Assembly: GCA_965637545.1 (NCBI GenBank)
Contig: OZ281494.1
Span: forward strand, 15,500,001-15,564,000
DNA: 64,000 nt
Direction: 5' to 3'
Source: Phallusia mammillata
Taxonomy: Eukaryota
Positions within the stretch are counted from its first letter, which is position 1. Every line of letters starts with the position of its first letter. The position numbers and the translations under genes were made by a program. Below are positions 3,817 through 53,806 of the stretch, piece after piece. The notes below the pieces were generated by a model. It had not been told where the DNA came from and searched no databases. It worked only from the letters and a program-made list of their open reading frames with translations.

Positions 3817-5156
3817 ACTGCAGCAGACCTTGTACATTCTCAAGCAGCACAAGGTGATGCATGCCAGACTGGCGAATAGCAGGCAGACAGCCGGCAGTGT
3901 TCAAGAGGTTGCCTCGCGTCCAAACAAGCGTGCAAACTGCATCCTTGTTTCATAACGTTGACGAGTTCTGGCTCTACATACGGACCTTACAACAGGAAAT
4001 TTGAGGAGTATATGGAGTGGGCGCGAAAGTGCTACTGCCCCAATCCTCATACTTGTCCGGTGCAGCCGGACGAAGCGATAATCATGTTGAAGTGCTGATG
4101 CATTCGTTTTCTCTCCCCCTTACAAAGTTTTATTTTTGTTTGTTTGTGATTGCATCGTTGTCGTGTTTGTACAAAAATCCGCGATGGCTGTCACGCACGC
4201 CGTGTAAATAAATACAAAAACCATGGAATCTATGTAAGCTTATTTTTATAAAATGGTAGAAAATTGCTACAATGTAGTTTTGCTCCTAAATTTCTTGTCA
4301 AAACATAAAACTTGAGGGGAGACTTATGAGTTGCGTAGAATAATAAAATAAATATAAAATACTACAAAGACTTTTGATACTACTGCAAGAACAAGTTGAC
4401 TAAACTACCAAATTAACAAGGCTCTGGTTGTCCCCTACCGCCGAAGACACATTGTTATTTCTTAGCAACAAGAAATTTATTTACCTGACATGAACCGGCC
4501 AGCAAGTCAGTGACCTGGCGATTGTTCGCGGGGATTTTACTTCTTACTTGCCATAATTATGAATAAAAACTTACCTATACGCAGTTTAAAATCCCCCTGG
4601 CGTAGGCCTTCCTCAGGCTATTAGTCTCAGTGTCAGTTAGTGACGACGGTTTATAAGTAATTTCCGACTCAGGCTCTACATACCAGCTGCTAACTTCCCC
4701 AAATTCCGACGTTCGTGACTGTACGACGTGTCACCACCATTTACTGATGACACATCAAAACTTGTTCTGGAACCTAATTGTTCCAATTATTACATCACAG
4801 ACGCATAAATTACAATGCCAACAGGGTTGGTTTATTGTGTGGTGTGTAGCCTAGGGTTTCTAAAATTACTGATCAGGGTTTGATAAACCCAATGAGGACG
4901 GGAAACAATTTTTGGGATTTTTCCATGTGGGATGTGTTGTGGCGGACAGCAGCATGCAAAATGTCACCTGTGGTTTATGTGGGAAGGGAAAAATTCGCCT
5001 CTAGCAAGCCAATTAAGAAACAAAGGAAGTGCTTGCCGCACGTCACATTTTGTTGTGATTACATATTCCCGTATGCGGTCACCGACTTGCAGTGACTAAT
5101 TGCAGAAATCAAAGCAAAGCTGCATTACCAGCACTTGCTTTGCACAGAACTATGAG

Positions 5157-5851
5157 TGTTACGGACAAATTCACAATATTTAAATGTGATTTTTATGCTT
5201 TCTTTCCCAAGTGCAACCATGCTTAACGTCTATTCCCAAGTGCATTGTTCTTTGTTAGTTTTGGGCCAATCCTAACTTTTATATGCGGTCATGTGACTAA
5301 AACGTGCTTGGACTTAGCCACACCTTGTTCTAAAAGTGCAGTTTGTATGTTTTAGTGCAGTAATCTGTTAGAATCGACTTAGTTTAAATGTTTGTGTGTT
5401 AACCAAATGTCAGCAAGTTTACAAGTATGTTAATGTATAGCCATGTGAAGTGTTTCTAGTAACTTTTCGTTTGTTATTGTTGTTTGAATGTTTAGACGAT
5501 AAAGCCAACACCATAATGTCAAACACCTAGGTACTGTGAACTTCAGAAATCTCAACTGCTCAAGTGCTTAACTGTCTCAATTTCCTCTATTCTGTATAGT
5601 CTTGACATCCACTGTGGCGCAATTCAGCTGTTTTGGATCTTGGATACGAACTGTATTTGTTGTCATTCGTGCACTGTTCTTGCACCTTCATCGCCATAAT
5701 ATAACACTGAAAACCACAGTTTGTGCAGTCTAGAGGGCAGTTGTGAATTACTGACTCATTGTACCTGATGATGGTACCAACGAAGGCATTAGCCTAGGTT
5801 TGCCTAAAGTGAGCTTAGGCCGTGACTAGTCCTAAAATTTTGGACGTCACA
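5157..5851 (+). repeat. 5' LTR (695 bp)
   Basis: tgttacggac...ggacgtcaca; no difference from the 3' LTR found by eye. Confidence 0.97.
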
Positions 5852-5935
5852 TCATTTCTGAAGAAGCCAGACCCCTTTCTATTAAGAAAGGGTGTCTGAA
5901 ATCTGCTGTCTGGCATTAGTGGTGTTGCAAATACA

Positions 5936-8900
5936 ATGCCTGGATCAAATTCTAGCACATCCTCTCATGAGGATGTGGACGGAGTGCTTCAAGAAAAGTT
6001 GCATTCCTTGAAATCATCTCGGAGTGGGCATTTGGGTGCTGTTACCAAAGCCGAAAATATTGTTTGTAACTTGATGCTAGATGTTTCTAATATCAAGGAA
6101 GTACCAGCTGCAAAGGAAGCTTTTGATAGTGCACTGACAAAGTGCTTGGACTGTTGCAAGGAATACCATTCTGTGATTCCAGATTCACTCTACTCTCAGA
6201 AACAAGAGGCAGTGGACAAGATCAAGTCCCTGGAGGAAAAAGGGGACAACATAAATTCTATGTATCAAACATTTCTACAAAATGCTGCTGTGGAGTTGGG
6301 TTCTACTGGTGGGCATTCGAAAAGCTCACATCACTCAACTGGGTCAAGATTGTCCTCTAAATCCAGTTCACATCGTTCTAGTAGAACAAGCTCAAGATCT
6401 TCACACCACTCACACCATTCCAAGGCTCCTAGTTTGAAATCATTCCACTCTTCTTCTTCAATATCAAGCAGAAGCACTACATACTCAATGAGGGAGGTGC
6501 GGCGTGCTCAGCTAGAAAACAAGCTGACAGAGTCAGAGGCACAATTAACTCTCCAAGCATCAGCTGATGCTGTTAATGATGCACTGATGAAAGCTGAGGA
6601 GATAAAACGTAAGGCCAGAGAAGACGAGGAGGCCTTAAAGATGATGCTTGAAGATGAAAAGGAAGAAAATGCCCAGCGAAGAAGGGCAGAAGAAGAGGCA
6701 AATGCCATGCGTAAAAGGGCAGAAGAAGAGGCCATAGCCAAAAGAAGAAGAGAAGAAGCTGATGCAGAGAAAAGGGCGATTAGAAGAAAAATGGAACAGG
6801 CTGCAGCTCGACGGAAAAGAGAAGAGGAAAGGGCTGAAGCAATTTTAGCCAAGGCAAAAATGGAACATCGACAAAAATCTTACAATGCACAGTTGAAAGT
6901 GCAGCGCAAGAGGCATGAGGTTGACCTGGTTGTACTTGAGGCTGAACCAGTGGGATCCTGTGATTCTCGTCATGAATACAGGTTGGATATGCCCCCACTA
7001 AATCAGATAGATGACGCCACGGTGGGAAGCTCTGCTTGTCTACAGCAGTCTGCCCATGACCTAGCTCCGATGGACTGTCCAATGCCTGGTGAAATGCATA
7101 CCATTTCTGGTTTCACCCCTCTAGCCACAGCAAAGCTGCCACAGCCTGAATATCCTGTCGCTCATCCAGCAGAACAGCTAAATGTTTCTGCCGATCCATA
7201 CTTGCCTGTATGTACACAGACTGACATAAAGCAGGAGACTCACAGTCCTTCTATGGGGCCGGTCTCCAAGTACAAACCTCAGCCAGATGAGAGCTTCACC
7301 AAAGATGACTTTCACTATGGAAAGGCCATGGTGGACTTGGTGGAGAGTACGAAAACCATGCTGCATGGCTTTACACTGCCCAAAAGGGGGCTCCCAAAGT
7401 TCTATGGGAATCCAATGAATTACCACAACTTTATGAAGAAATTTGATGAGATGATCACAAGGCATTTTCCTGATCCTGCTGTACAACTTCAGTACCTTGT
7501 AGACATGTGTGAAGACAAAGCCTATGATGTTGTCCATGGATGTTGTGCCACGAGCCCACCTGAATTGGGTCTTGCTACTGCTCGGGAGTTGCTGAGAGAT
7601 AACTTCGGGCGCATGGACTTGGTGGTAAATGCACATGTCAAAGAGTTGACCAAGGGTCCACCAATTAGGACTGGGGACAATGAAGGTCTTCGTTCTCTTG
7701 CTACAAGTATGACAAATGCTTTAATGGTTTTTCGATCTTTGGGTTGTGAGTCACAGTTGGACTATTCCCAATTCCTAGTGGACATATTTCAGCGACTACC
7801 CAAGCACATGCAAAATACATTTGTCACAGAGGCCAGTTCACTCTACCGAAGGAATGGAAATGTGACATTCAGCAATCTGACATCGTACCTCAACCAGAAG
7901 GTGATGGATTCCAACAACATGTTTGCGGATGCATTGACAACAGTTAAGGAAAGGGATCCAAAGAAGGACAAGCCCCAGAAGAAGAAAGAACATGCTGTGT
8001 TCTCTGCACAAACTACTTTGGGCTCCACATCATGTGAACATGTTGACAAACCTAAACCTCCAGACCAAACAAGGAAGAAGAAGCCACAACCATGTGTGGT
8101 TTGTAACAAACCTCATCCATTATGGGTATGTGATGAGTTCCAGAAAAAGAAACAGTTTGACCGTTGGACAACAGTCAAGAATAACAACTTATGCTTCAAC
8201 TGCTTTTCACCAGACCACATGGCAAATGAGTGTGTCTGCTCCAGAAAGTGCAAGTCTTGTGAAAAACCACATCATACTCTACTTCATCGTGATGAACAGC
8301 GAAATATAGAAAAAACATCCACATCGACTGAGGAAAAGAAGAATGCTGAAAGTCCCAAGGAAAGCTCAACGACATATGTAGCCACTGTTACTACACCCCC
8401 TGCAGGAAGGGACAGGGTTAGACTCAAGGTGGTGCCAGTACATGTGTGGGGAAGGGATCTGAATCGTGTAGTGGAGACATATGCATTTCTGGATGAGGGA
8501 TCTGACACCACATTCTGCACGTCAAATCTGAAACAGAGACTCAAGCTTGAAGGAAAACAAGTTTCCAGAAGACTTAATGGCATAAGTGGCAGTAAGGATC
8601 TGCAGGGATACGAGGTCGGACTGTCCCTACAGGGGATTCAAGAAACAGATTCAATCCGTATTGAGAATGTACTGACGGTGGATGCTCTACCAACACTGAA
8701 GAACAGTATACCTACAATGGAAGATGTAAAGCATTATTCTCATCTGAGGGGATTGGACTTTCCAAAGTTACCTGATGCAGAAGTGGATATTCTCATTGGG
8801 GCCGGTACGCAGGAAGCCCATTCTATCAGGGAAGTGCGAACCGGGAAGCCAAGACAGCCAACAGCTATTCACACTGGACTTGGGTGGACCTTAGTTGGCA

Positions 8901-11900
8901 CTGATGCATCAGATGCATCAGAGGACAGTTGCAATGTTAACTTCGCCACAATTGGCAATAATGAACTACATGACATGTTCCAGAAGATGTATAATCATGA
9001 CTTTATGGATGACAAGTGTTCAAATGATGTCTCTCTATCTATGGAGGACAAAAGGGCACTCGCCATGATGAATTCGACTGTGCAAAGGAAAGGCAAGCAT
9101 TATCAGCTTGCGCTACCATGGAAGAATAAAAATGTAAAGCTACCTTATAACCGTGGAACAGCCGAGAAACGCCTTCTTGGTTTAAAGAGACGATTAAAGA
9201 CAGATCAGTCACTGTTCCAGAAGTACAGTGAAAAGATTAATGACTCGCTGAAGAATGGTCATGCCAGGAAAGTACCAGATGGAAAGGATCCACACCCGGG
9301 AAAGACTTGGTACATTCCACATCACTGCTGCACTGGTGGAAAGTTTCGGGTTGTGTTTGACTGCGCTGCCAAGTATGCAGGCACATCCCTCAATGAAAAT
9401 CTCTTACAAGGACCTGATTTGACCAACAACCTTGTTGGTGTTCTTCTTCGTTTTCGCCAGGAGAAGATTGCATTGATGGCTGACATTAAAGGAATGTTCC
9501 ATCAGGTTTTTGTGGACCCAGATGACTGTGATGCTCTGAGGTTTTTGTGGTGGCCAAATGATGACTTGTCCAAGCCACCTGAGGATTACCAGATGCTGGT
9601 GCATCTTTTTGGGGCAACTTCTTCTCCAAGTTGTGCCAGCTTTGCATTGAGAAAGGTTGCTGAGGATAATGAGAGCAATGCAACAAAGGAAACAACGGAT
9701 ACTGTCCTGCGGAATTTTTATGTAGATGATTGCCTGAAGTCGGTCAAGACTTTAGAGGAAGGTTCCCAGCTAGTCAAGGAACTGGATGAGCTACTTAAGT
9801 GTGGAGGATTTCACCTTACCAAGTACCTGAGTAACAGCAAAGAACTGTTAATGTCTATTAATGAAGATAACCTTGCTCCATCAGTGAAAGACATGGACTT
9901 GGATGGATTGCCAATCGAGAGAGCTTTGGGAGTGTACTGGAACACTGGTACGGACTGCTTCGAGGTCAAAGTGAAGTTGAAACCAAAGCCCTGCACAAGA
10001 CGTGGAATTCTGTCAACAATAAGTCAGTTGTTTGACCCCATGGGGTTTGTGCAACCCTTTATCTTGCCAATCAAAAAGCTTATGCAAGAATTATGCAAAA
10101 GAAACATAGGATGGGATGAAGCTATTCCCACCGAGTTTGAGGTTGCCTGGAAAAAGTGGCTGGGCAATTTATCACTGCTGGAATCAATTACTATTCCTAG
10201 ATGCTTTAAAACAATGGACTACATAAGTGCTGAGCTCCATTGCTTTTGTGATGCAAGCGAAACTGGTTATGGAGCTGTTTGCTACCTTCGCCTGGTAACT
10301 GGTGGTTCCTACCACTGCTCATTTGTGATGGGAAAGTCCAGAGTTTCCCCTTCAAAGGCAGTTACCATTCCCCGGCTTGAACTCACTGCTGCAGTGGTTG
10401 GTGTTAAACTAGCGCAGTTTGTGATTCGTGAGTTGGATCTTGAGTTGGAAAAGGTTGTGTACTGGACAGACTCCACTTCTGTGCTTCAGTACATCAGAAA
10501 TACATCACGCCGCTTTCCGACGTTTGTTGCCAATAGGCTGGCTGTGATTCAAGCAGCCACAGAACCAGAACAGTGGAGACATGTGGATACAAAGCAAAAT
10601 CCTGCAGACATTGCATCTAGGGGTTTTTATCCTGACCAGGTGGACAAGGCAAAGGCATGGTTATCCGGTCCATCATTTTTGTGGAAAGAAGAAAGTTGCT
10701 GGCCAGAACAGCCAGCTGTGTTACAATTGCCAGAAGACCATGAAGATGTTGAAGCCAACACAATTGTAGTAGAAATTGTGCAAAATGGTTTGGACAACTT
10801 GCTAGACAGATACTCTTCATACAATGCTTTACTCAAGGCCACTGGTTGGTTGTTGCGGTTCAAGCAGTACATGATGTGTAAGTTTTCAGAGAAATTACGC
10901 AAACCTGCACCCAAGGCAGGTCTGCTGACGGCAGAGGAAATGGAAACAGCTGTCCATCAAGTGGTGAAGCTGGTTCAGCATCAAGCATTCGGATCTATGT
11001 CATCGGATCTTAAGGAATACCAGAGCTTTTCCCACTACTTGGAATCTCAGCATTCGAATGGATTACATATTCGAAACCGGGCTCTTGGTAGACTTAGCCC
11101 TATGAAAATAAATGGCACTATGAGAGTGGGAGGTCGCCTACAACATGCAACTCTGCCGGAGGACATGAAGCACCCTATGATCTTGCCTAGTCGTCACCAT
11201 GTTACTGGGCTGATTATACATCATTACCATCAGCGAGAAGGACATAGTGGAACTCAACACGTTCTAGCAGCCACCCGTGAGAGGTACTGGATTCTCAAAG
11301 GCCAATCATCTGTTCGTCACTACTTGAAGGACTGCAGAAAATGTCGTTTTTGGAAAGCACAAGCTGGTAGGCAGTTGATGGCACCCTTGCCGGTTTGTCG
11401 TGTTGAGTCTGGACAGTTACCCTTTACTCATGCAGGGGTTGACTACTTTGGCCCTCTAATGGTAAAAATTGGACGCAGTCATGTGAAACGATATGGCTGC
11501 ATTTTTACTTGTATGGCTACAAGGGCTGTACATTTAGAGCTAGCTGGCTCACTGGACACTAGTTCATTCATACAGGCACTTCGTAGATTTGTGCTGAGAA
11601 GAGGATCTACCACTAAACACATATATAGTGACAATGGAACCAACTTCATTGGAGCTGACAGAGCACTCCGCGAAGGGATTAAAGCATGGAATCAACAACA
11701 GATACATACAGAGCTACTACAAAAAGGAATTGAATGGCATTTCAATCCCCCAGCTGCCAGCCACCAAGGTGGTGTATGGGAGAGAATGATTCGCTCTGTG
11801 CGAAAAATTTTGCAGTCACTGACTGGAGACAAGATATTGTCTGAGGAATCTTTGAACACCTTCCTGATAGAAGTGGAATCGATCTTAAACAACAGACCAC

Positions 11901-12313
11901 TGACACCTGTCAGTGATGATCCAAAGGATGGGTCTGCTTTGAAGCCCATTACTTTGTTAGCTGGTGGAATTGAAGCTACATTGCCACCTGGAGAATTCAT
12001 CAAAGCAGATGGCTACAAGAAATCCTGGCGGGCAGTCCAATGGTTGAGCGACCAGTTTTGGAAGCGCTGGGTGAAGGACTATTTGCCACTTCTGCAAAAA
12101 CGCCAGAAGTGGTTGCAACCTGAGAAGAACTTTGAAGTTGGAGATGTTGTGTTGGTAATGGATGCCAATACAAAACGAGGAGTATGGCCCAAAGGACTGG
12201 TCGAGGAGGTCTTTCCAGATCATGACGGGATGGTGCGGAGAGTTCGAGTCAGAACTTATGACTCAACTTTGATGAGGGACATTCGAAAGCTGTGTTTACT
12301 TGAATGTGGCTAA
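5936..12313 (+). CDS. BEL/Pao Gag-Pol polyprotein (2125 aa)
   Basis: Gag DUF1759-like LPKFYGNP; three Cys/His knuckles (CVVC..H..C, CFNC...H...C, CKSC..HHTLLH); protease FLDEGS; RT YVDD; Pao RNase H FCDAS...WTDS; integrase HHCC plus VDYFGP/SDNGTNF/WERMIRSV. Order PR-RT-RH-IN. Confidence 0.97.
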   Translation: MPGSNSSTSSHEDVDGVLQEKLHSLKSSRSGHLGAVTKAENIVCNLMLDVSNIKEVPAAKEAFDSALTKCLDCCKEYHSVIPDSLYSQKQEAVDKIKSLEEKGDNINSMYQTFLQNAAVELGSTGGHSKSSHHSTGSRLSSKSSSHRSSRTSSRSSHHSHHSKAPSLKSFHSSSSISSRSTTYSMREVRRAQLENKLTESEAQLTLQASADAVNDALMKAEEIKRKAREDEEALKMMLEDEKEENAQRRRAEEEANAMRKRAEEEAIAKRRREEADAEKRAIRRKMEQAAARRKREEERAEAILAKAKMEHRQKSYNAQLKVQRKRHEVDLVVLEAEPVGSCDSRHEYRLDMPPLNQIDDATVGSSACLQQSAHDLAPMDCPMPGEMHTISGFTPLATAKLPQPEYPVAHPAEQLNVSADPYLPVCTQTDIKQETHSPSMGPVSKYKPQPDESFTKDDFHYGKAMVDLVESTKTMLHGFTLPKRGLPKFYGNPMNYHNFMKKFDEMITRHFPDPAVQLQYLVDMCEDKAYDVVHGCCATSPPELGLATARELLRDNFGRMDLVVNAHVKELTKGPPIRTGDNEGLRSLATSMTNALMVFRSLGCESQLDYSQFLVDIFQRLPKHMQNTFVTEASSLYRRNGNVTFSNLTSYLNQKVMDSNNMFADALTTVKERDPKKDKPQKKKEHAVFSAQTTLGSTSCEHVDKPKPPDQTRKKKPQPCVVCNKPHPLWVCDEFQKKKQFDRWTTVKNNNLCFNCFSPDHMANECVCSRKCKSCEKPHHTLLHRDEQRNIEKTSTSTEEKKNAESPKESSTTYVATVTTPPAGRDRVRLKVVPVHVWGRDLNRVVETYAFLDEGSDTTFCTSNLKQRLKLEGKQVSRRLNGISGSKDLQGYEVGLSLQGIQETDSIRIENVLTVDALPTLKNSIPTMEDVKHYSHLRGLDFPKLPDAEVDILIGAGTQEAHSIREVRTGKPRQPTAIHTGLGWTLVGTDASDASEDSCNVNFATIGNNELHDMFQKMYNHDFMDDKCSNDVSLSMEDKRALAMMNSTVQRKGKHYQLALPWKNKNVKLPYNRGTAEKRLLGLKRRLKTDQSLFQKYSEKINDSLKNGHARKVPDGKDPHPGKTWYIPHHCCTGGKFRVVFDCAAKYAGTSLNENLLQGPDLTNNLVGVLLRFRQEKIALMADIKGMFHQVFVDPDDCDALRFLWWPNDDLSKPPEDYQMLVHLFGATSSPSCASFALRKVAEDNESNATKETTDTVLRNFYVDDCLKSVKTLEEGSQLVKELDELLKCGGFHLTKYLSNSKELLMSINEDNLAPSVKDMDLDGLPIERALGVYWNTGTDCFEVKVKLKPKPCTRRGILSTISQLFDPMGFVQPFILPIKKLMQELCKRNIGWDEAIPTEFEVAWKKWLGNLSLLESITIPRCFKTMDYISAELHCFCDASETGYGAVCYLRLVTGGSYHCSFVMGKSRVSPSKAVTIPRLELTAAVVGVKLAQFVIRELDLELEKVVYWTDSTSVLQYIRNTSRRFPTFVANRLAVIQAATEPEQWRHVDTKQNPADIASRGFYPDQVDKAKAWLSGPSFLWKEESCWPEQPAVLQLPEDHEDVEANTIVVEIVQNGLDNLLDRYSSYNALLKATGWLLRFKQYMMCKFSEKLRKPAPKAGLLTAEEMETAVHQVVKLVQHQAFGSMSSDLKEYQSFSHYLESQHSNGLHIRNRALGRLSPMKINGTMRVGGRLQHATLPEDMKHPMILPSRHHVTGLIIHHYHQREGHSGTQHVLAATRERYWILKGQSSVRHYLKDCRKCRFWKAQAGRQLMAPLPVCRVESGQLPFTHAGVDYFGPLMVKIGRSHVKRYGCIFTCMATRAVHLELAGSLDTSSFIQALRRFVLRRGSTTKHIYSDNGTNFIGADRALREGIKAWNQQQIHTELLQKGIEWHFNPPAASHQGGVWERMIRSVRKILQSLTGDKILSEESLNTFLIEVESILNNRPLTPVSDDPKDGSALKPITLLAGGIEATLPPGEFIKADGYKKSWRAVQWLSDQFWKRWVKDYLPLLQKRQKWLQPEKNFEVGDVVLVMDANTKRGVWPKGLVEEVFPDHDGMVRRVRVRTYDSTLMRDIRKLCLLECG

Positions 12314-12912
12314 ATTTCTACTTTCTGTGCATGCTCTTTCATATTTGTAACCTTTTCATTCTTCATTACACCAACATATATGCCTCTTCACATGTCATTC
12401 TTGCTAAGTCTGTACTACCTATATGTCTTTCATCTTGCCTTATAGCCTTATCATGCATGTTAGTGTTGTGTAGTGTGTTCTTCATAAATTGTAAACATTC
12501 CGAATACCTCTTCAACTAAACATTGTAATGTCTGTACTGATAACAACCAAGTATTGTGAAAGTGTTTTGTTTTCTAAGCCTTTCTGTGTTTTTTACCTTG
12601 CCAAAATCTGTCATTGTTTTTTACCTCCTAGAACAATATTTGGTGCAAAATTTGTAGTTTATTGTGAAGCATTTGAAACTGTGCATTTGATACTATTCTT
12701 GTCAGTATGTAACATATTCACTCAGTCATAGTTGTGTCTTTGTTTTGTTTTTAAGCCCAGGATGGAAATGTTTGTGTGGGTACTTTGGTTTGGGTCAGTT
12801 ACCAAATTTGTAATCACAGCTCTCTCTGTGACCAACCTTCCTGTGCCTTGTTCTTTGTCCGTTTTTGTTTTGAAAAATGTTTCCATGCTGTCTGACATTT
12901 TTGGGGCCGGAA

Positions 12913-13607
12913 TGTTACGGACAAATTCACAATATTTAAATGTGATTTTTATGCTTTCTTTCCCAAGTGCAACCATGCTTAACGTCTATTCCCAAGTGCA
13001 TTGTTCTTTGTTAGTTTTGGGCCAATCCTAACTTTTATATGCGGTCATGTGACTAAAACGTGCTTGGACTTAGCCACACCTTGTTCTAAAAGTGCAGTTT
13101 GTATGTTTTAGTGCAGTAATCTGTTAGAATCGACTTAGTTTAAATGTTTGTGTGTTAACCAAATGTCAGCAAGTTTACAAGTATGTTAATGTATAGCCAT
13201 GTGAAGTGTTTCTAGTAACTTTTCGTTTGTTATTGTTGTTTGAATGTTTAGACGATAAAGCCAACACCATAATGTCAAACACCTAGGTACTGTGAACTTC
13301 AGAAATCTCAACTGCTCAAGTGCTTAACTGTCTCAATTTCCTCTATTCTGTATAGTCTTGACATCCACTGTGGCGCAATTCAGCTGTTTTGGATCTTGGA
13401 TACGAACTGTATTTGTTGTCATTCGTGCACTGTTCTTGCACCTTCATCGCCATAATATAACACTGAAAACCACAGTTTGTGCAGTCTAGAGGGCAGTTGT
13501 GAATTACTGACTCATTGTACCTGATGATGGTACCAACGAAGGCATTAGCCTAGGTTTGCCTAAAGTGAGCTTAGGCCGTGACTAGTCCTAAAATTTTGGA
13601 CGTCACA
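12913..13607 (+). repeat. 3' LTR (695 bp)
   Basis: Copy of 5157-5851. Confidence 0.97.
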
Positions 13608-16600
13608 ATGAGTAAACAGGTTCCACTGTATAAGCGTGGCCTTGCGCAGCACGTTTAAAGATTTTACTACCATGTTGTCATATTGATTATTCTGATCTCG
13701 GATACAAAATTACCCAAAACAAACATTAGTACTCAAGTTATTTTGGAAAACATGACTTGGTTTGAGCCTTTACTTTGCCGTGATACAAGTATATCCACTA
13801 AAGACAAGAAATTAAGTATAAGACATAAATTGACTTGAGACCCGAACTGACAGCATAACTTTAGACAAAAAACATCAATCGTATAAACAGAAACAGTTTT
13901 TGTTCAAACTACAGACTTCGACTGAAGGATAAAAGCGCATGCCTCCACGGACGCAAGCGGGAATTTCCTTTGGTCTGAGCATTCTAGTCTTGAGTACGGC
14001 AGATGTAACCCAAACCAGTGCAAGCAGGCGAAAAACAGCTAAACCGCCTATCCACGGCAAATATGAAGTTTTGTTTCCTCGTAAACACAATGTGACCTTT
14101 TCCAGCACGAGACAAATAGGCTTTGTGTCCAAAGTAGTTTTTACGATTTATTTGTCATACTCTTAATACGTCACCCTATCTACCTAACAGCAATCAGCTG
14201 CGAGCCATATTATGGAGCGTTTAAGTATAAGGAACGTTTATTTAGTTCCGAAATCTCTTTCATCTGCCTCATGTGTTGTAAAAACATTAAAAAGTTTAAC
14301 CATTGAGTTTGTCATTTGCTATTGGCATAGTGAGTGCATGGTATTTTAATTGGTGTATGTCGAAACAAAACGTATTTGTGCTGCGCAAAATATGATCTGA
14401 TATACCAAACATATAACGGATCACGGTAAATTAAAAATACCTTAAGGTTATAGGAGCTCGCCTTAACACGATTACGTCTTGCTGGCATGCAGGCAATTTG
14501 CGTAAGTTATTTTGATCGGCGAGAAAGTATTGATAAAAAATCCCAAAGCACAGACCGACAGGAAAAATTACCCTATTTAGGCTTTTTGCCTGGCAGCACA
14601 GAAACAATGGAGTTTCAAAAAAGGTATTGTAACCGTAAACGCAACAAAAGGGGTTAGACTTTATACGGGAAGGCGGCGTTAGCACTGAGCAAGAAACTTA
14701 CCACACGGAAATACAGGAAATGTTGACCTTTAAAATTCATACTAGCGCGATGATACGCCATGGATTTCCCCTTAGAATTAGATAACATTTATACGTCACG
14801 ATGGTCCGCACGTACTTCCGCTTATGTTTTGAAACGAAATTTTGTACGTTTGAACTCAGCGAACTGAGAATAAATTACAACCATAGCGGATTTATTTTAA
14901 TGTTTATCACAAAAACACACAAAACCGAAAAAAGTCCGTGAGTTGTGTATAATTTGATGCGCTCGAGGCTATTTGAGCTGAAAATGCTCTCCGGGTCAAA
15001 CGACAAAGGTCAATGATTTTGTCTTTTAAGCAGTGAAAACAATTTATGCAATCTCTGTGTGCTTTTCTCAAACGGCAAAAGTTTACCAGATCAAAAGATT
15101 GACTTCTAAGGGTATAACCCCTGCAGTTGTACGTGCCACACTTACAATATGGAGCGTTTGTTATGAAATGACAACGTGTTGTTGTGCTGCGTTTGATTTT
15201 GAACATACATCAATTACAAGTATTTGGTATACGCGTTTGTCATGAAATGGCAACGTACCACAATTCTGCTAATTAACTGGTCAAGGTATGGTACTGCATG
15301 GGGAATTTTCTCGTACAAGTGGTGCAATTTTGATTTGTTTACTTTGACGTAAGTACACATTCAGAAAATGGTTTCACCACAGCATGTAATTTAAACATTA
15401 CAATGCGCACACCAACTATTTTAGTTTTTACAGAAATGCCCTATTTGAAGAAACGGTTCTATACTCGATTTACGGCAACGGTTGCTGCAAATAAAAAGCG
15501 TTTTGGACAGTTTGGAGAAAAATGAAAGAAGGGTTTGTGGGTCTGGGTTAGTTGTTCGTTAATGATCCAGAAAACGGCAAATGTGTAATTTTTATTCATT
15601 ATATATAACAGCGAAACCAAAAAAACTCGCCCAATTCCAAATTACAGTAGGTCCTTGCCCCCTAATGAGGAACAAATTACTAATAAAGGTCTCTTCACTA
15701 TATCCAGTGACAGATCATGACTCTTACCACAACAAACAATAAAAGTAAATATATCGTGATGTTAAAAGGGATCTATGTGATGAGCAAATGAGCAACTATA
15801 TGCCAATGAAGTTATACGGTTTCAGTTCTCTTTTCAGCCAGTTTCCGTGCTCCAAGCTTAAACTAAAATATCAGTGTTGCGCCATTCTAGGCATGGAACC
15901 GAAATTTGGGGACCAGAAAACAAAAAATGGATTAACGCACCCACAACGTCATGACGACGCTCTATACGTTACTGCTCAGACCCGTTGACTGATGAAAATG
16001 TATTCGTCAGACAGAAGTCATCAAATCGTTTCAGGCCTTGTCCAAGGATCATCAGTTGAAAACCACTGCGCTAGATAAACTTACAAAACGTGTCATAACG
16101 TACTTTGGACGTCGGAGCAAGTCCGTTTTTATACGCAAATGCCACAAAACCAGCACGACCACGTAAGCTTACAAATAAAGCCAATATAGTATGCGTTTCC
16201 CTGGAAAATATCTTGAAGGTTTGATACAGGAAGACCTGCTTCCGAAATGACTCGAGTCGCACCGAAAATAAACGTAACGCGTACTGCATCGTGTCAGACC
16301 AGATTGTTTTCCCCATCTAAGTTTATCAGGATGTGAATCACATGTTTAGGATAAACTTTCGTTGGAAATGACTGTTATGGTGTTCCGGACAAATGTCCGT
16401 TTGTGCGCTTGGTTGACAAATTTAAATTCACGACAAAATTTAAATTATCAAAAATTGTTGGCATTTAAAATCCCCAAAAACTGTTGTATTTCTGTAAACA
16501 AAAAGCTGTCGTTTAGAACAAACGGCTTCATTTTTAAAATGGCTTTCAGATGCCAATTCTTTAATTAACGTTACTCAATGTAAGTAGGCCTATTAAAAGA

Positions 16601-22665: not shown

Positions 22666-22986
22666 CAGTGGTTCTCAAACTGTGGTACGCGTACCACTAG
22701 TGGTACGCCAGGACTTTTCAGGTGGTACGCGAGCAGCTTTCTATCATACCTAATTTAAGTCTGATCTAAAATTGCAACTCAACTGACCCAATTACTCAGT
22801 CCTGGTTTGGGCGAAACTCGTGTCTTGTACAGTCTTTTGAAATTACGAAATATGATAGACTATGTCAGGGCGAGAAAATGGCCCTATTTCTTGGTCTATC
22901 CATTCAAACAGGGTTTAGGAGGTGGTACGCAGCGATAAAGAAATTTGTCAGGTGGTACGCGGTCCGTATAAGATTGAGAATCACTG
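22666..22986 (+). mobile_element. hAT-type MITE, family A
   Basis: TIRs cagtggttctcaa / ttgagaatcactg; perfect 8-bp TSD ctctattt; internal ggtggtacgc repeats. Confidence 0.9.
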
Positions 22987-25900
22987 CTCTATTTACTTCA
23001 ACAATTGCAAAAACTATTGCTTTGATTAGGTAGGTGGTCTGTTTCTTCGCGTTTTTCTTTCAACCTCAGGGCAAAATTTCCTTTCAAAAGGTTTTTACAG
23101 AAGAAGGGTCAGCGATTGAGAAGATATCCCTGTTAACTTTAACAACTTCTCCAACTATCTTAGATTATGTAAGTGGCTATTTTTTGCTTTTTTCTTACAA
23201 TCTTGGGGCAACAGGAATCTGCTTATTAGCGAAATTAAGACGAAACGAGGACCAGACCCAAAACGCCCCGGCGCGTTTCGTTTCCGCTTAACTGCAACAT
23301 GAGATGCCAAATTGTTACTCAAATTTCCCCCTTTGGGAGTAGGAAACAGACAATGGGGGTGTGATGCAGACAAAACAGGGTGAAAGGTTGAACTTCTGCA
23401 AAAGTACATTGAAATAAAACTTACATGTTTCTAAATTTATTTGGGAACCATCAGTTTCGGGGTTGTTGTTGGCCATTCCAACTTTACAAAAATATTACAC
23501 AAGTAAACAGTTATTTTAAGCAATTAATTAAAAGTATCTATGCTTCTGACAAGCAACAATTAACAGCAGATACAACCTCCCTTATCTTCTATTGTGAACT
23601 AAACGTTTATAGTTTTGGAACACAAAAAAAATTCGATACTCTGTAAAAAGAACTTGTAGTCAATTGTAAAGCAAAGAATATTGCAGAAGTCACTCGTGGA
23701 TAGAAACACTAGGACAAGCGATAGTAACGTTTACATATAATTTCGTAGTTCCATGACCCAATGTTGTTTATTCTTTTTTGTCAGTATAAAAACAAACCAA
23801 CGGTACAACAAGTTTTTTTAACATTTACTTCTATGTACTCTAATCTTCATTAATTGTTATTATGTTGGTAGACTGTAAACAAACAGTTTGAATGTTTAAC
23901 GTATGATCATGAGTCGTATTCTTTATTACCTATACCTATCCCTATTTATATCCAACAAACAACGATGAATTATATTGTTGGCGTAGTAACCAAGGACACA
24001 TATAGGCTACGTCCTCTTGTAAGCGACGGTCATGCGTTGTTACAACACAACTAGCGATGTATTTGTTTCAGTTTCGTAATAGTATCAAGGCTTTTGTGTG
24101 GAAGTATTATCCATTTTTTTGACCATTACGTTTTTTCGTATGATTACAGTGATTTCCATTTAGACTTAAGCATCCTTAAATCATTGACCTTTTTTGAACG
24201 TCATTACTACGCAAATCAAGGTGACGTCATATCTTATTGCGACTCATTCTTGCAACAAAAAAGTACCTAAATCATGGTGACGAAAACTGTTGCGTCCCGA
24301 CTATAGTTTGAATTATTAAAGAGAAAAAAATCTCACAAAAATGCATTTGCATAGAACTCGTAGTGTCACGCAAATAAACGACTGCTTTGCGTGGAATAAA
24401 ACTGGGTATTACATCTAAACCGCAGCTCGTACGCAATACCGAGGTCCACCTTCAGGTGCCATCCGCTCGCATTGCTCGATCCATCACCGCGCTCCATCCG
24501 ATCACGTGACCATGCTGTCCACGTGCCTGTGTCGTTTAACAAAATTCTTTCGCAAGGCTCGAGGGTTTCTTTGTGCCAAGGCGGAAGACGAATGCCCGTG
24601 TTCGGTTATTAAATTTGCAAGGAAATAAGCGTCATGCAGAGGGACTTACCAATTTGAGAATTCAAAAATATACTCAACGAAGTGAAATGAAATTATCGTG
24701 ATCTGCATGTTTAAGCAATGGAGTCTTGTGAAACTGGTCAAAAAGAAGTTTCTGGCAAATAATGTGACTTTCCCAAGCAACTTTCGCAGAATATTCAAAC
24801 GACTTTTTCTTTGTAGCTCATTCTTCAAAATGAAACTGTCACGCACGCAACGTTGTCCCCTGAAATTAAATTCATTGTTCAAACATGTCTAGAAAATCCC
24901 CGAGCAGGCGTGTCACAAGGTACTGAAAGGGTTACCATTTGATCAAAGCAGGGTTCATAGTCCAATCCGTCACATGGCGACCGCGTCCACGAAATACCAA
25001 CATTACAATACAAACGAGGATGTGGAAAATGTTTTTGACTTTTTGCCCTTTGTTAAAATATATAGGGTACAGGCATACTGTTTAACAATGGTCTGCCCTA
25101 GGAGCCACTTGAATCAAAGAAAAAGCCCGTTTTCAACGCTGGTGACACTGCTACATGACTGTTGTAGCACTATACAATTTGTACATTATAGGGAACGATG
25201 TTTTGTTGTTACTAAACTGTGAAATAATACGATAGTTCTACCTTTTCAAAATGTTCAGTTTTTTTTTCAAATACAAGAAAGTATTTTAATGTAGGCAAGA
25301 TTGGCTAGATATAATGTTTCTACAATACCAGCAGGTGCCTATGTTTCGCTTGTACTTTCAAAAACAAGAAATTACAAGATCTTCTCTTTGTACTTGGATT
25401 ACGCAAAGTTCCAAACACATCAATATTTTTGGGTAGGCCACATTTCTATTCCGTATGATTACGAGAAAGGTCAATTCCTGAAACCGAAGTGTAAAAACCC
25501 AACAACAAACAGCACAATCACGTTACGCAAATTTTTCACAGATGCAAAATCCCCGCAAATTTGTGCAATATCATTGTAGACATAAGGAGAATTCGATTCA
25601 ACGTCAATTAAATTCGAACTGAATAAACGTCTACACCCTACGTAAAGAGAAGAGTTGGGTAGCGCAAACTGGGGTCCCAAAAATAGCCGGGAAGCGTCGT
25701 TCCGTGCGCACAATGACGTACAATCCTGCGTCAACGTGCTTTACGCCATCACTCAACCGTAACGGGCGTTTCTTGCCATGTCCTTGCTGCGCCCTGAGGC
25801 TGGTTGGAAAAAATCTAAGTCGGTTTTTTAGAGTAGGCCTGAGGGAAACTTCTTTCCGCGGGCAAAACGAGCTCGGTTCTTTTTACTTTTTGTGTCTAGA

Positions 25901-32152: not shown

Positions 32153-32467
32153 CATTGGTTCTCAAACTGTGGTACGCGTACCACTAGTGGTACGCCGGGT
32201 CTTTTCAGGTGGTACGCTAGTAGCTTTCCGTGATACCTATTTAAGTCCGATCTAAATTGCAACTTAACTACAAAACTAATCAACCCTGATGGTTTGGGCG
32301 AAACTCGTGTTTTAGACATGCTTTTGAAATTGCTAAATATGCTACCAGGTTGAGAAAATGGGCCTATTTTTAGTCTATCAATTCAAATAGGGTTTAGGTT
32401 AGATGGTATGCAGCCGTAGAAAAAGTTGTCAGGTGGTACGCGAACCGGAAAAGATTGAGAACCACTG
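32153..32467 (+). mobile_element. hAT-type MITE, second copy of family A
   Basis: Colinear with 22666-22986 (ctcaaactgtggtacgcgtaccactagtggtacgcc...aagattgagaaccactg); TSD not preserved. Confidence 0.85.
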
Positions 32468-33357
32468 CCGGATGAAAGTAATTGTAGCACAAGAAAATCT
32501 TAAGTTATTGTCTAATTATATTTTTATTTAACTTAGGTCAACTACACATGAAGTTAACTCGAAAGGCATTTGCGTCCACAGATTATTAATTATCATTGAT
32601 TAACACAGGAGTCACCAAACTTTTTTCGGGCCGGATAAGTTAAATAATGATCCGGCAAACCAAAAAATGAAAAATTACCAAGTAGAGATTTCAAACATAG
32701 TAAGAATAATTATCAAGTCAAGTTAAATGTTAAAAACAAATCTTGGGCAAATCTTTTTAACTGTCATTTACAAACAAAAACATGACACACTGGCGACTGC
32801 TACTAGAAGGTGAACATTTATCATAATGAAAAAGTCGTCAACAGTCATTATATAAGCCCAGAAATCCCAAAATGGCCCAGGCAGTTTTACTTTTATTGTT
32901 GTCCAGCACATCATAGGCTACTTTTCGGCCTTGTTTTTTGGCTTACACATATGACACTGCAAATAGTAGAACCATGTGCTTAACTTTATGAAGTAACTTG
33001 TAAACAAAATTGATCGGCAAGCAAAACGAACCCGTTTGCTACCCTCTGTGCGTCACTGTACTATTTTTACACCCTCAAGGCTAAATAACGAAGCAAGCGG
33101 CGGTGGCATTGGTCGCTCTTATCCATCTAACGACGATGTTTTGTTGCAATTAACGGGATTAACTACGTACGGAAAACAGACGTCTCAGGTTGTGTTTGAC
33201 TAATTTTTTGCAGTCGAAACTTTTTTATTTTTAATGCAACATGTGACGAACAGCGACTGGTGTATTTTTAGCTTCACCGTTTTTTTGCGGTATAAAAGTA
33301 AAGGAGTGTACCCAATGTGCAGCAATCCACTGAAACAGAGATAGACAAATATTTGAG

Positions 33358-39623: not shown

Positions 39624-40580
39624 TCAGGTTTCGGCCACGTCGACCTTAATCAAACCCATCTCGCATTTTTTACGGTGTTCCCGCAAAGTCACAAATCGTC
39701 GCAGCGAATTCGTTCTCGGAAAGCGGCGTTGTCGGTTTGGGGCAACGTCTTCTTTTAAGGAAAGCAGCAAAGAGTACATATTGCTGTGACTACTACAACG
39801 TCGCTCCAACCCTTGTTTGTGGGTTTTCGTCTCAGCAGCATCGTTTTTGGTGTTGTCGGTCTCGTGAAACGGCGTCAAACGTGTGAAGGAAGACTTCGAG
39901 CTGATGTTCCACACCTTGCGCCCACCGTTGTTGCTATTGGAATTGTTGTCGAGTTTCTTCGCCTTGAGGCTCAAATTTTCACACCTAAAATTTCTAAGCT
40001 TCGATGCAAAGGTAATCACGCCTCGGGACTTTGATTGAGGTGCTGTTTTTTTAGTGATCTGTTTCGAAAGTGGTGCTGTGACTTTGCAGTCCAGCAGTGC
40101 ACGTGTATGCATTTCCGTGTTTACGACTGATTTTGTCGGGTTTATTGTTTGTTGTGCACTTCTGTTGGCAAAACGACTCGTCGTCAAGTTCCGTTGTCGA
40201 TCCCATTGATGAAACCACCCGCTGATGTTTTTTTCAAATTTATGAATGTCACCAACGTTCTAAAGAAATGGTAAAATAGAAGTAATAAACAAAGAGCAAA
40301 TTAAACATACAATCCACGCAAAACGCACTAATACAGTTTGGAAAAGAATTTGGTTTATTATCCTTAACGTTTATAGCTGGTGTTGGAAAATGTTTTGCAC
40401 TGCATAACAAAACGCATTTTGACACAGGCGCAGCACTGTTTTGAGCAACAGTATTTATCGTATTACTACGAATGCCGCTTAAAACAATACCGATTACTTC
40501 TAAACCGGGTTACCTCAAATCTCTAACCAAGTTGTTATCTCCCGACTTACCATTCGATGTCTATCAGACGTAACTGTCAT
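39624..40580 (-). CDS. Unknown basic protein, paralog A (~221 aa)
   Basis: Exons 40580-40551 (MTVTSDRHRM) and 40259-39624. Shares N- and C-terminal motifs and intron position with 42992-43932. Confidence 0.7.
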
Positions 40581-42991: not shown

Positions 42992-43932
42992 ATGAAATTC
43001 AACGCCGACCATCTTAAGAGAATGGTAAGTCCCTTGAGTTATTGATTTTCTTACCAAGGCTGCTTGCTGTCGAAACCCATTATTGTAACTTATATGTTGA
43101 ACTTAATTGTTTACAGTGCGGCTGGTTTTAAAATTTCTAACAAACCGTACTTTGAAAAGTATCAACGGGGTTTAAATAATGTTTTTAATATTTTTAGACT
43201 GTTGCCGATTTGAAAAATTTGGAACAAAACATAAGCATGTGGTTCCATTTAAAAGACCGCCAGAAAAGTGTCGCCGCAACTGCCTTGGGCCTTCGCAAGT
43301 CGTTCACCCACAAACCGTGCAGTTTCACCTTCCAGGGGGCATCTAAATTATCCGAGAGGCATTCGAAAGCTGTTTTTGACTGCAAGGAATCCTTTAGCAG
43401 CTTGTCCAGTGCTGTTAAGGCCTTTTTGCCAAACGGAGGGGTAAACATGCCTGGAGTAAACGCAGATACCCAAAAACGCGTAAACCTTGAGGTTGCTCTG
43501 CGAAAGCGCTACAGTGTATTGTCACCGAAATTGGATAAATCGGAAACTGGCATTATAAGGAGAGAATGTAGCAGTCCTAAGAAGTTATTATCCGAGCTTA
43601 GAAAACCTCAACAGGCAAACTTGTTGCCAAGTCAAGTCTCTCCGTTACGAAATGGATTAAACGATGCCGCAGCGGAAAAGTGTCCTGTCACCGAAGATCA
43701 AAAGAAGACTGATGTTAATGCAAATACAGTATCAAAGCGCCTACTTCCCGCCTGCTTGACGCCAAACAAGCCAAAGCGACTTTCGAAATCAATTCCCCTC
43801 CGGAAAATCGTTATTTTACGTGAACATCACAAAAAGTGTGAAAATCGAATTAAACATCTGGAAGAAAAAACGGCACGCCTGCGCCTTCAGAAAAGCAAAC
43901 TAGAACAAAAGTGCACTGCGAATAAACTGTAA
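42992..43932 (+). CDS. Unknown basic protein, paralog B (~255 aa, C-terminal coiled coil)
   Basis: Exons 42992-43024 (MKFNADHLKRM) and 43198-43932. Motifs EQNISMWFH..DRQ and LREHHKKCE are shared with paralog A. Confidence 0.75.
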
Positions 43933-49882: not shown

Positions 49883-52800
49883 CTGCAAAGCAATTCTTCC
49901 CGCTGGCATTTTACCAATGTCTCCACACAACTGTGGACAAACGACTGTTTGAATCTTTTTTGCTTCATCACAGTTCTGATTGTGGGTCTTCACTGTTAAT
50001 TAAACAAAGGGTCACTTTGTATTCATACAACCATTGTTCAAATTTGTCAAAAACTCAAAATCAAATTCAGTACACTTCTTCAGCGCAAATATTTGTTCAC
50101 TGAAAAGCATGCATTTAGAAGACAAAACTTACAAACCAAAAAAGTAACTGTAGGTTTTACAACACCTGTCCAACTTAAAAATAGGTAAATAAAAAAACTC
50201 CTGTTTTGTACATATTTTAGACATTTTTGTTGGTTTGGTAGTTCAGTTAACCAAAAAACAAAATATTTGAATTCCAAACGTTATCGTAATACCTGCTTTG
50301 ATTGCTGCCCTGAATGCAAGGTAAGCATTCACTGTGTCTGGGACCAGAATGGGAACCCTCATTACAGGTACATAAATAAGATTCTTTACAGTTTTGCAAT
50401 ATTCCCTTTCAGACAAGTCTTCTTCTTCAAGATCAACTGATATTGTCCGCAAGCGTTGTTTGTTCAGTTCATCATTTTCATCTAATTTGCCTCCTTCGGA
50501 TATGTTCATTGGAAGCACAATAGCTTCACCCTGTAAAAAACAAAACTCTAAAAATTTGGGTGTCAAACTAAATAAATCCAATTTTCAGTCGATTTAAGCA
50601 TATTTACATGTGTAAAGGGAAATCATGTACAAAAACAAACATACCAAACCAACACCAAGTAGTTCTCTATATGAAAAATTTACGCCTTTATGTATTGTTT
50701 ACATTTAACAACAACAAACAGCTTACCACTAATAGTTCCCCATCATGATTTTGGCAGATGATTTGTCTGAGTCTTTTTTGTCTGCAAAATGTTTGTAGTT
50801 GAAACACAACCGATTTTCGCTCAAGGGCAGAAACACAAAATACGAGGTGCATACATAACAAAAGATTAGGAAAGCAATTTAATTTAAAAACAAAATACGT
50901 AAAAAATTGTAGTGGATTGGGTTAGTTTATGTTAATGTTTGTAGAAGAGTTCCTTACATTGCCCATCCAAATATTTTAATGTACTGCAGCTCTGGTTCTC
51001 CATCCAGAAATCCAAAGCTGTTTCCAGGAATAATCTGTAAAAAGAAAGAATCAGTTGAATTCAGAACCTTTACATTTTTCATTGATAATTAGGCAATAAA
51101 GATTTACCAGTGCATCAGCTGTCAGTGTTGAGTCCACAGTTTTTCTGCAGACCTTCATTCCAGGTGTTTTTTTAAACTGTCTTTGCCAGCAAATGTACTG
51201 TTGATTGTCAGTTGTATAAAGCTCATAGGCAACATCACAAACTAAATCCAGAACTGGGTCCACTGTTAACAAAAATACAAACAAGTATCAATCAATTAAT
51301 GCTGTTGCTTTTCATATGTTCAGGGTAAAATTAGCAGTTCTTTTCAGATAAAAACATTAGATTGTCAACTATAATAATGTTCAGGTAAAGGTTACAATAT
51401 TCTACTATGTACATACATTTTTAAAATATCTCAAAACATTACCAAACTTTGACTATATATTTGATGATATGTTTGATCTATTCCAGTCCAGTAATATTCC
51501 AATGACAAAAAATCATGCAATTAAAAAAATAACCAATAATTTTGACTTAAAAAATTTACCTTTCTTTTCAGTCACATTTCCGGTTTCTGTTTGCAATACA
51601 GTATGCCTTGGAGACAGTGACTCTGTGCTGGATGACTCTTCACATTCACTACATTAAAATAAATCACTGTTGAATAATTAAACACAAAAATGTCAACCAT
51701 TGATCAGGACATTTAAGCACTTACCTTTCCTGGTTTTCTGTTAGTGAAAAGTGAATTTTCTTTCTTTGGCTGTTTCGTAAAGTGCTTTGTCCATTAAAAG
51801 AAGAAAATGAAGTTCCCACCTTGCAAAATAAACTTGAGTGAAAATAAGTTACAGACTCGTCTTAAATTTGATAAAGCCATCACTAATTGGTTTTAGACCC
51901 ATATCCAGATAAGCCTATTCCTGGCTAACAACTTTTTATCAAAAACAAATATTTAACCAATTTACTGGATAACAACCATCATGTTACATTAAGTGTAAGA
52001 CTAATATAATCATATAGCAAATATCAAAACTATGTTTAAAGATGAATAGTAATAGCCAACATTAAAAAAAAACACAAAATATTTTTGGAAATATTTAACA
52101 TCAACATCTGACCTGAACAATACTAATCAATCTGACACGAAAAAGTATCCTATCATTTTAACAACATTACACTTCTTACCACATGGTTGGGTTGCAATTC
52201 AACAGGTTTGGGTCCCAAATCAAGTTTAAATTCCGCTTCTGTTTCATTGTTGTTTTGGGCAACAGGCACATCTGTTTCTGATTTAACTGATCGACCACTT
52301 CCTGCCATGGTTTATTTAAATTTAAATATACATGTTGGTCTGTAACACAATACCAAATTTTAAAAAAAATCCTTACCACGAAACCAATTGCCAATGCTGC
52401 GAAAGAATGATGAAGGATTTGATGTTGAATCATTGTTATCACCTTCCAAATCTGTAAAGCAAAACCGTAAATAGTTTTTACGCAAAAAATGCTATTAAGG
52501 CATGTATGAAAAACCAAGGCCATGCCATCATAATACAAAAGTACAGAACATCATGAAATTTTAAATAGTTCTGAGAACAGTTAATATTGTTCAACTCATG
52601 AACTGTAGCTACTATTTAATAAGTTCAAATAAAGGCTTACCAACACTTAGACGTTTCTTTGTAGGAAGTGAAGTTTTGGTCAAATGAACGTCGGATACTG
52701 ATCTGGAGTGAATCTTCTTTATGTCCTGACTTAATGCGTTGCTGTTATTGCTTGTGTTATAGTTTCCATATGACTTCCAATTGGTGGTATATCCCGTCCT

Positions 52801-53064
52801 CCAGGAGTAATCGGCATCTGTGTAATTTCCTTCTGTACGTCCGGGAATCACAACCACCTCGTCATCATCTTCGTTGCTGCCAATGACTAACGTATCATGA
52901 TCAACGTCTTGAATAAGTTCGTCTTCGTAATATTCATCCAACGAATTATCATCATCAAGGTCGCTTAGCGAGCTTAAGTCATCATCGTCATCAAGACTAT
53001 CAATGTCAGCTACATTTTTGTGTAGGTTAGGAGCGCCGTCGAAATACGTAAATGTCGAAGTCAT
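49883..53064 (-). CDS. Macrodomain (Appr-1''-p processing-like) protein with a long acidic disordered N-terminus; final exon(s) below 49883 unresolved
   Basis: Exons 53064-52641, 52451-52377, 52301-52180, 51819-51725, 51648-51560, 51262-51108, 51034-50958, 50781-50727, 50530-50293, 49992-49883. Motifs ADALIIPGNSFGFLDG, HDGELLVGEA, VPVMRVP..VPDTVNAYLAFRA, IQTVVCPQLCGDIGKMP. Confidence 0.8.
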
Positions 53065-53806
53065 GATGGCATCTAAACATATAGCGCGTTGTCAGAAAAC
53101 CAAAACATCCACTGGTGCTTGTAGAAAGACTAATAAAAACGGAACTACGCTTCGGAAATTAGAACGCTTCGGAAATCTTTCACTGTCTTTTTACAACCCA
53201 ATTCAAACAACGAAACTAATCGGCAGTACACCACAGTCCACACCTCACCTCACGTCACACAAGTTTTAAATCTATAAATAACTTCGCGGCTGTAGTCCCC
53301 TTTTTCGCCTGCGGTTCTGCGTTTTTCATCCGCTCTCTTTCGAAGAATTTTTCACGATAAAAATGAACTTAAAAACACTATTATGTTTTTTCCGCTGCTG
53401 TCCACATCCACACTTAGTACCGGTACTCTCAAAATTGACAAAAAAATTGTAAACAAAATCACGTTTTAATTTCCATTTTTGAACATCGCATATGTCTTGT
53501 AGATAGTTAGAAAAAAATACTTTTTCAAGGACATGTGCCTCTTGTCAGGCTTGCTAGGCACAAAAAGCAAAACATAACAACTCTCTATCGCCCTCTAGTG
53601 ATTAATCTTGACGTCTGGCGGGAAATATTACACGTTATTGGCATTGTTGTTTTGCTGCAACTGTGCTATTTGTTGTTATACGTTTGGACTTATGAGTCTT
53701 TTTGATGTTACCTTTAAACTTCTGATAACAACTGAAGTATCAGGTAACAACGTTGTGGTTTTAATTAGCAGGTATACAACTTTGGATAGGACTGCTTTTA
53801 AAAGCA
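53065..53806. promoter_or_regulatory. Putative bidirectional promoter between the macrodomain gene and PARP1
   Basis: 742 bp between divergent ATGs. E2F-type GGCGGGAAA at 53617-53625, CTCF-like CGCCCTCTAGTG at 53589-53600, tandem cgcttcggaaa at ~53148-53175. Confidence 0.5.

Follow-up and report, generated by a model that had tools for sequence, protein, structure and literature searches.

Structure and Coding Capacity of the Element

An intact BEL/Pao element was located on the plus strand at positions 5157-13607 of the window, that is, of the whole 64-kb stretch of Phallusia mammillata contig OZ281494.1 that was analysed. It is bounded by two identical plus-strand LTRs of 695 bp (5' LTR, 5157-5851; 3' LTR, 12913-13607), opening with TG and closing with CA, and lies between two copies of the target-site duplication (TSD) ATGAG, at 5152-5156 on the left and 13608-13612 on the right. 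The single gag-pol open reading frame, recognised from its open frame and Pfam domains, runs from a first ATG at 5936 to 12313 (+), within a stop-to-stop frame of 5900-12313 (2137 aa). Its Pfam domains are Peptidase_A17, DUF1759, RVT_1 (under Pfam's cut-off), integrase H2C2 and DUF5641, the accessions being PF05380 (E 3e-51), PF18701, PF03564, PF17921 and PF00078, and the same set is found in the best homologues of the element protein. This domain set agrees with a previous sequence-only reading of the locus, which had called the element BEL/Pao, and that assignment is therefore right. Over the RT-RH region, identity to the best named homologues of full coverage amounts to 70% and 59% for ascidians and to 54-58% for echinoderms, hemichordates and corals.

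With the BEL-Pao elements (Belpaoviridae) of the ICTV profile it shares the PR-RT-RH-IN order within one ORF, the BEL-specific Pfam domains, an LTR length within 0.2-1.2 kb, a polypurine tract (PPT) and a 5-bp TSD. The profile also describes an 18-nt primer-binding site (PBS) for tRNA-Arg or tRNA-Gly, and replication as poorly understood (PMC8742986); no such site occurs in the window element, that trait being descriptive in the profile and BEL/Pao placement resting on protein domains. The whole 944-bp query is covered by 7 genomic copies with 93-100% identity, and the family is therefore young.

Within the 5' LTR, a T-rich tract with an AG splice acceptor is found at 5465-5495 (+; AG at 5494-5495), and the tract itself looks like a decayed spliced-leader copy. 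Further downstream (5698-5703, +), an AATATA variant, the sole polyA-like hexamer of the LTR, represents a possible, weak polyadenylation signal; it is altered in some copies, and contigs of two runs end at 5719-5730. Fold prediction places a U5 stem-loop at 5822-5850 (+), ending one base before the LTR end. The LTR is separated from the PBS by a 2-nt spacer (5852-5853, +), which is mirrored by the 2 nt between the PPT and the 3' LTR; the PPT, its spacer included, occupies 12903-12912 (+) and is recognised from its place ahead of the 3' LTR and from a similar type of motif in relatives. With retroviral 3' processing as the model, both spacers may be read as extra bases that integrase would remove.

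Elsewhere in the window, a MITE-like element of ~320 bp with terminal inverted repeats is present in two copies (22666-22987 and 32153-32468), a cluster of ~158-bp repeats extends over 55755-59175, and open frames of 159-244 aa without Pfam match lie at 39624-40259 (-), 43198-43932 (+) and 52612-53091 (-).

Complementarity between LTR and Primer-Binding Site

The 5' LTR is directly followed by TC and then by ATTTCTGAAG (5854-5863, +), and the TGG that would complement the CCA of a tRNA is missing, as the sequence-only reading had remarked. ATTTCTGAAG is the exact reverse complement of LTR positions 5541-5550 (+), a segment repeated in the 3' LTR at 13297-13306 and predicted to be the primer, with its 3' end at 5550; Watson-Crick pairing extends on neither side. 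Both the 10-nt complementarity and the 2-nt distance of the site from the LTR edge are thus confirmed as they had been described. Among 5000 dinucleotide-shuffled LTRs, a match of at least 10 nt with a site starting at most 5 nt from the LTR end was reached 22 times, and a laxer test of the window element, in which a splice joint was allowed, was passed by 9 of 300 shuffles. The 10-nt complementarity is real and well above chance. The hairpin that had been placed immediately downstream (5868-5898, +) is present as a local leader fold of 13 pairs with one bulge and a 4-nt loop, but it begins 4 nt after the site; no compensating changes were seen in it, though several family copies vary there.

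The LTR-PBS junction can be seen in 10 distinct copies of the window family, 8 of which keep the same 10 pairs. In copy L007, a C-to-T change in the LTR 10-mer is accompanied by a G-to-A change in the PBS, a C-G pair becoming U-A (one event), and in copy L017 one pair is broken on the PBS side. Sister family A carries another 5' half on both sides, with three more positions co-varying, and of its 3 readable copies 2 show full pairing and 1 (L306) has lost the outermost pair. Covariation of both 10-mers in relatives, which had been suggested as a check, is found in L007, in family A and in the match of its own that each family possesses.

Other BEL Families of the Genome

Eighty BEL loci were taken from the best-scored 130 and 150 matches of two genome searches; the ends could be read in 53, and a perfect TSD flanks 44. 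TGG is absent from the first 6 nt after the LTR in all 44 TSD-bounded copies, in contrast to the ICTV BEL-Pao elements with their 18-nt tRNA PBS, and 43 of them show a match of 10-15 nt, contiguous or across a GTRHG donor; among the controls, 2 of 44 flanks of host DNA and none of 220 internal sites do so. Since these copies are not independent, the family is the unit of count: the match was found in 12 of the 12 BEL families read, with a sequence that differs per family, and for one representative of each of the 12 the observed length was reached by 0-14 of 300 shuffles.

Four families (window, A, B and I) carry a contiguous LTR complement of 10-15 nt. In the remaining 8 of 12 (C, D, E, G, H, J, K and M) the match is split, its contiguous part being only 6-8 nt, and 10-13 nt are matched once a predicted GT-AG intron of the LTR, 59-229 nt long, is bridged. 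The PBS of each split family matches that family's own two halves, which read AGTTG / intron / AAAAAC in C, CAGTCG / intron / AAAAAC in J and AAACTCTG / intron / AAAAC in M. The donor is GTRHG in 8 of 8 split families, whose LTRs contain 63-88 GT sites with only 4-14 of this type, and the introns exhibit a T-rich tract and a YAG acceptor. Between subfamilies the intron interiors diverge, GT, AG and both primer halves being retained, and in family E the acceptor AG is retained in 53 of 55 matches (duplicates included). A lax splice test without the donor filter gave at least 10 nt in 14 of 132 cross-family pairs, partly families with similar primers. No intron-less copy was encountered among 135 LTR matches, a sample biased to the best matches and including some overlaps.

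On a quick integrase tree, built with relatives from ascidians, echinoderms, hemichordates and corals and without L106, L114, L121 and L133 (short or absent), the window family groups with A and B in one starred group and the split families form another (SH-aLRT 94). Contiguous family I is nested among the split families, a position that fits an intron loss there, the direction of the change being assumed.

Nineteen of the 21 representatives have a predicted primer whose 3' end is AAY, 2-7 nt from the LTR, and this points to conservation of the site of cutting or initiation. In six of the families with a split primer, matching ceases at, or 1 nt ahead of, an AGT start that resembles an initiator motif. 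Wherever polyA-like signals are legible in the LTRs, they follow the primer, a placement that an R region requires.

By eye, 1-3 more donor/acceptor pairs were observed upstream of the primer intron in the LTRs of L055, L063, L065, L068, L069, L110 and L121. Tandem arrays of PBS copies directly follow the 5' LTR in families C, E, G and M (L042-L064, L121), the order of their units varying between near-identical copies, and in C, E and G local complementary arms can fold over the PBS. Reading the variable bases downstream of the PBS as a mark of the primer 5' end was rejected, since they stem from the tandem PBS repeats of C, E, G and M.

Elements outside This Genome

Scanning contigs from metagenomes and MAGs yielded 89 loci, 15 with both LTR ends and 9 with the start only, the other 65 being unscored; we infer that the contigs carrying them are animal DNA. 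A match of 10-16 nt is present in 13 of the 15 two-ended elements, across a joint in 11 and contiguous in 2, and the 2 that fail have decayed ends. Seven of the 11 joint matches lie over GTAAGT or GTAAGC donors with introns of 76-164 nt (two of the seven being one family), one of the 11 combines TGG at +2 with a weak donor, and three or four outside elements have weak donors or 3-nt halves. For the 9 start-only loci, whose end was chosen among 12-55 candidates, 5 top matches of 11-14 nt over a GTRAGT donor give weak support. BEL/Pao elements were also observed in contigs filed under bacterial MAGs (L225-L232, three with complete LTR pairs), where they are probably host DNA contamination.

Comparison with Host tRNAs

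The host tRNA set was partial, comprising 81 distinct genes and 13 anticodons, with tRNA-Sec included and mitochondrial tRNAs left out. Searching it for a partner of the window PBS, another check that had been proposed, returned a best match of 6 nt, and 13 family representatives reached at most 5-7 nt. The window 10-mer stands ahead of a T-loop motif at 6 genomic places, versus 3 for a control, and ARAGORN detected no tRNA holding the 10-mer at those 6 places. A tRNA half with a UCA anticodon was considered as primer and is not supported, the host tRNA-Sec having another loop and stem.

RNA 5' End and Spliced Leader

The eight runs examined consist of assembled contigs, presumed to be RNA, from which a minor start could escape. 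A single contig of run X5 spans 5494-6194 and bears the 16-nt ascidian spliced leader joined at 5496, next to the AG at 5494-5495 and 45 nt upstream of the 10-mer. Ahead of the leader this contig opens with ten letters, which we take to be a template-switch adapter. The X5 joint is the only 5' end seen in the 8 runs, none of which contains a contig beginning at 5541; the transcription start near 5541 put forward by the sequence-only reading is not supported by these contigs, the one 5' end observed being a leader at 5496 in one contig. Being trans-spliced at 5496, the X5 RNA must therefore start its transcription further upstream. The 16-nt leader sequence of Ciona is that given in PMC1488885.

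The acceptor AG is present in 30 of the 30 window-family loci shown, one having the leader's 3' end in its place. Exact 16-nt leader copies number 3860 genome-wide (control, 0), and they look like leader relics written back into DNA; among four that were read (L101-L104), one lies after AG, one is a tandem of leader and relict, and one precedes GT. In family A the LTR holds a near-exact leader copy 36 nt before the primer in most of the 18 loci shown, in family B a 15/16 copy stands 12 nt before the primer, and one window-family LTR has the leader's last 12 nt at the acceptor. Leader copies at the acceptor were observed in L033 (LTR 346-362), L036 (LTR ~257-272) and L026.

In the window LTR, no splice joint was found by which the primer would be restored or made longer. 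A cis-intron from the donor-like GTATG at 5345 was rejected, GT being absent in older copies and no such joint occurring in the 8 runs. In run X18, one contig lacks 325 nt of gag (5970-6296; GG..AG, one extra base, diverged flanks) and is probably a deleted copy.

Predicted Folding of Primer and PBS

Fold prediction assigns the primer-PBS helix a probability of ~0.9 if the window RNA starts at or near 5541, and of 0.0 in the leader-capped RNA (5' end 5496), where a rival helix is better by 4.5 kcal/mol. Long-range RNA fold predictions are uncertain, and nucleocapsid can remodel folds. As modelled, the leader-capped fold would go against the simplest picture and leave room for a second start. 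Among 21 representatives, a pairing probability of at least 0.8 is predicted in 14 for primer-started RNAs and in only 6 when 60 nt are added upstream. Pairing in the compensated copy L007/L070 reaches only 0.12 even when the RNA starts at the primer, and a local hairpin is predicted to be preferred over primer pairing in families E and G. Any cut at the primer start removes competing folds, and the fold result is thus weak as evidence for a start at 5541.

Proposed Mechanism and Alternative Explanations

Considering (i) the counts in the 12 families, (ii) those in the controls and (iii) those in the elements outside this genome, the window BEL/Pao element likely primes its minus strand with its own LTR-derived RNA. 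Self-priming, as first suggested for this locus, is strongly supported by the covariation and the 12 families, but the start near 5541 to which it had been tied is not; that suggestion also came without notice of the predicted intron by which the primer is divided in most relatives. In the proposed scheme, the LTR RNA segment 5541-5550 would pair with the PBS at 5854-5863, and a cut of the RNA after 5550, probably by the element's own RNase H, as in Tf1, would free the primer 3' end, which RT would extend through the 2-nt spacer, U5 and R before jumping to the 3' end. The primer of the window family would be longer, ~71 nt if leader-capped, with its last 10 nt paired. In 8 of the 12 families it is predicted to arise only after splicing of the LTR intron, and in the window clade and family I it would be ready-made. 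The Tf1 primer is reportedly not removed, according to the title of a work cited in PMC11042837; if the primer stays on here as well, every cycle would recopy the PBS from it, and this would account for the compensation in L007 as well as for the presence in DNA of a site complementary to an exon-exon joint.

For a single 10-mer, P is ~0.004-0.03, and a chance complementarity in AT-rich sequence might be considered; with matches in 12/12 families and in 43/44 copies, against 2/44 and 0/220 for the controls, and with compensatory changes, it is already refuted and its probability practically nil. A tRNA half or other host RNA might instead act as primer, the LTR pairing then being a structural or regulatory helix. 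There is a resemblance between the window 10-mer and a UCA anticodon loop, the published description of BEL elements has them primed by tRNA (PMC8742986), and the tRNA set compared is partial and without mitochondrial tRNAs; nevertheless, loop and stem of tRNA-Sec differ, the 6 T-loop places hold no tRNA with the 10-mer, and the site differs per family and always tracks its own LTR, even across a splice joint, making a host-RNA primer very improbable.

The origin of the self-primer can be conceived in other ways. In the strict Tf1 form, a second, genomic transcript would start at ~5541 and its first 10 nt would be the primer, the leader-capped RNA being a messenger in which the primer is folded away. 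The pairing of ~0.9 predicted only for an RNA starting at or near 5541, and the AGT initiator-like start bordering the match in six split families, are in line with it; no contig begins at 5541 in the 8 runs, however, the extra upstream donor/acceptor pairs of several split families suggest starts further 5', and the fold support is weak, any cut at the primer start favouring pairing, so that this form appears rather unlikely. Priming in trans, in which a spliced or trans-spliced LTR RNA would act as primer donor for another, unspliced genomic RNA that is copied as far as its 5' end, is likewise a tentative proposal that we tend to doubt: it would account for the persistence of the intron in both LTRs (0/135 intron-less) and for how leader copies came to lie at the LTR acceptor (families A and B and one window-family copy), yet pairing in cis is predicted in most families, and with 3860 leader copies elsewhere in the genome a host insertion route exists.

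Relation to Known Systems and Implications

According to PMC7175516, Tf1 RNA anneals to the PBS through its first 11 nt and is cut by RNase H between nucleotides 11 and 12. PMC6317226, PMC4600332 and bioRxiv 10.1101/2022.12.06.519325 treat Tf1/sushi elements as self-priming, and the same is predicted there for the Tcn1 and plant TAR elements. As portrayed in PMC7175516, PMC4600332 and bioRxiv 10.1101/2022.12.06.519325, Tf1/Tf2/Tj1 and Tf1/sushi resemble the elements analysed here in a PBS just after the LTR, a complement of 10-15 nt to the own LTR, the lack of a tRNA site and a stem at the U5 end. Unlike Tf1/sushi, which are Ty3/gypsy chromoviruses, the window element has BEL/Pao domains and no chromodomain match in Pfam; unlike in Tf1, its predicted primer is placed 45 nt downstream of a trans-splice acceptor, and most relatives have theirs interrupted by a predicted intron. 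Of the three duplexes of the Tf1 'pretzel', the primer duplex and the U5-end stem are predicted in the window element, whereas the leader-LTR duplex is not, the leader hairpin being local. C. elegans Cer7, for its part, is said to encode its own tRNA-like primer.

Plant TAR (Houba, Osr-1; Ty1/copia) and the Tcn1 clade offer predicted self-primers based on the same type of evidence. The survey rule for self-primers in PMC6317226 calls for at least 10 nt starting 0-5 nt after the LTR; the window element falls under it, TAR and Tcn1 belonging to other superfamilies. Looking for contiguous matches, such a rule would pass over all 8 families with a split primer. Half-tRNA priming (copia, Osser, Bianca), as treated in PMC6317226, likewise involves a PBS without TGG near the LTR, but here no tRNA of the partial set matches any of the 13 representatives over more than 7 nt, and the site tracks the own LTR. 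No report of BEL/Pao self-priming or of a splice-built primer was found in the open literature (subscription journals, Repbase, GyDB and supplements lying outside this scope), and a term search of PMC554778 and PMC3118150 returned no mention of PBS, tRNA or priming.

Exact cut sites can be predicted from the PBS/LTR pairs, and RNA end mapping alone would therefore suffice to test the idea. In its broader form, to which we lean with some reserve, a large branch of BEL/Pao elements in marine animals would be tRNA-free, with the host spliceosome making the primer from two LTR exons; one clade in this sea squirt would have it ready-made, with an RNA 5' end tied to spliced-leader trans-splicing and maybe a switch between replication and translation, the primer being folded away in the latter. 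The start of reverse transcription in BEL/Pao elements is assumed rather than known, and self-priming, if true, would make them the third superfamily to have solved it in this way. A splice-built primer would explain why PBS searches on such elements have failed, and it would leave tRNA fragments without the handle by which they act against LTR elements. It also raises the question of how splicing would take out an intron at one LTR and leave its counterpart in place at the other. If the primer does depend on splicing, host RNA processing would be a licence for replication.
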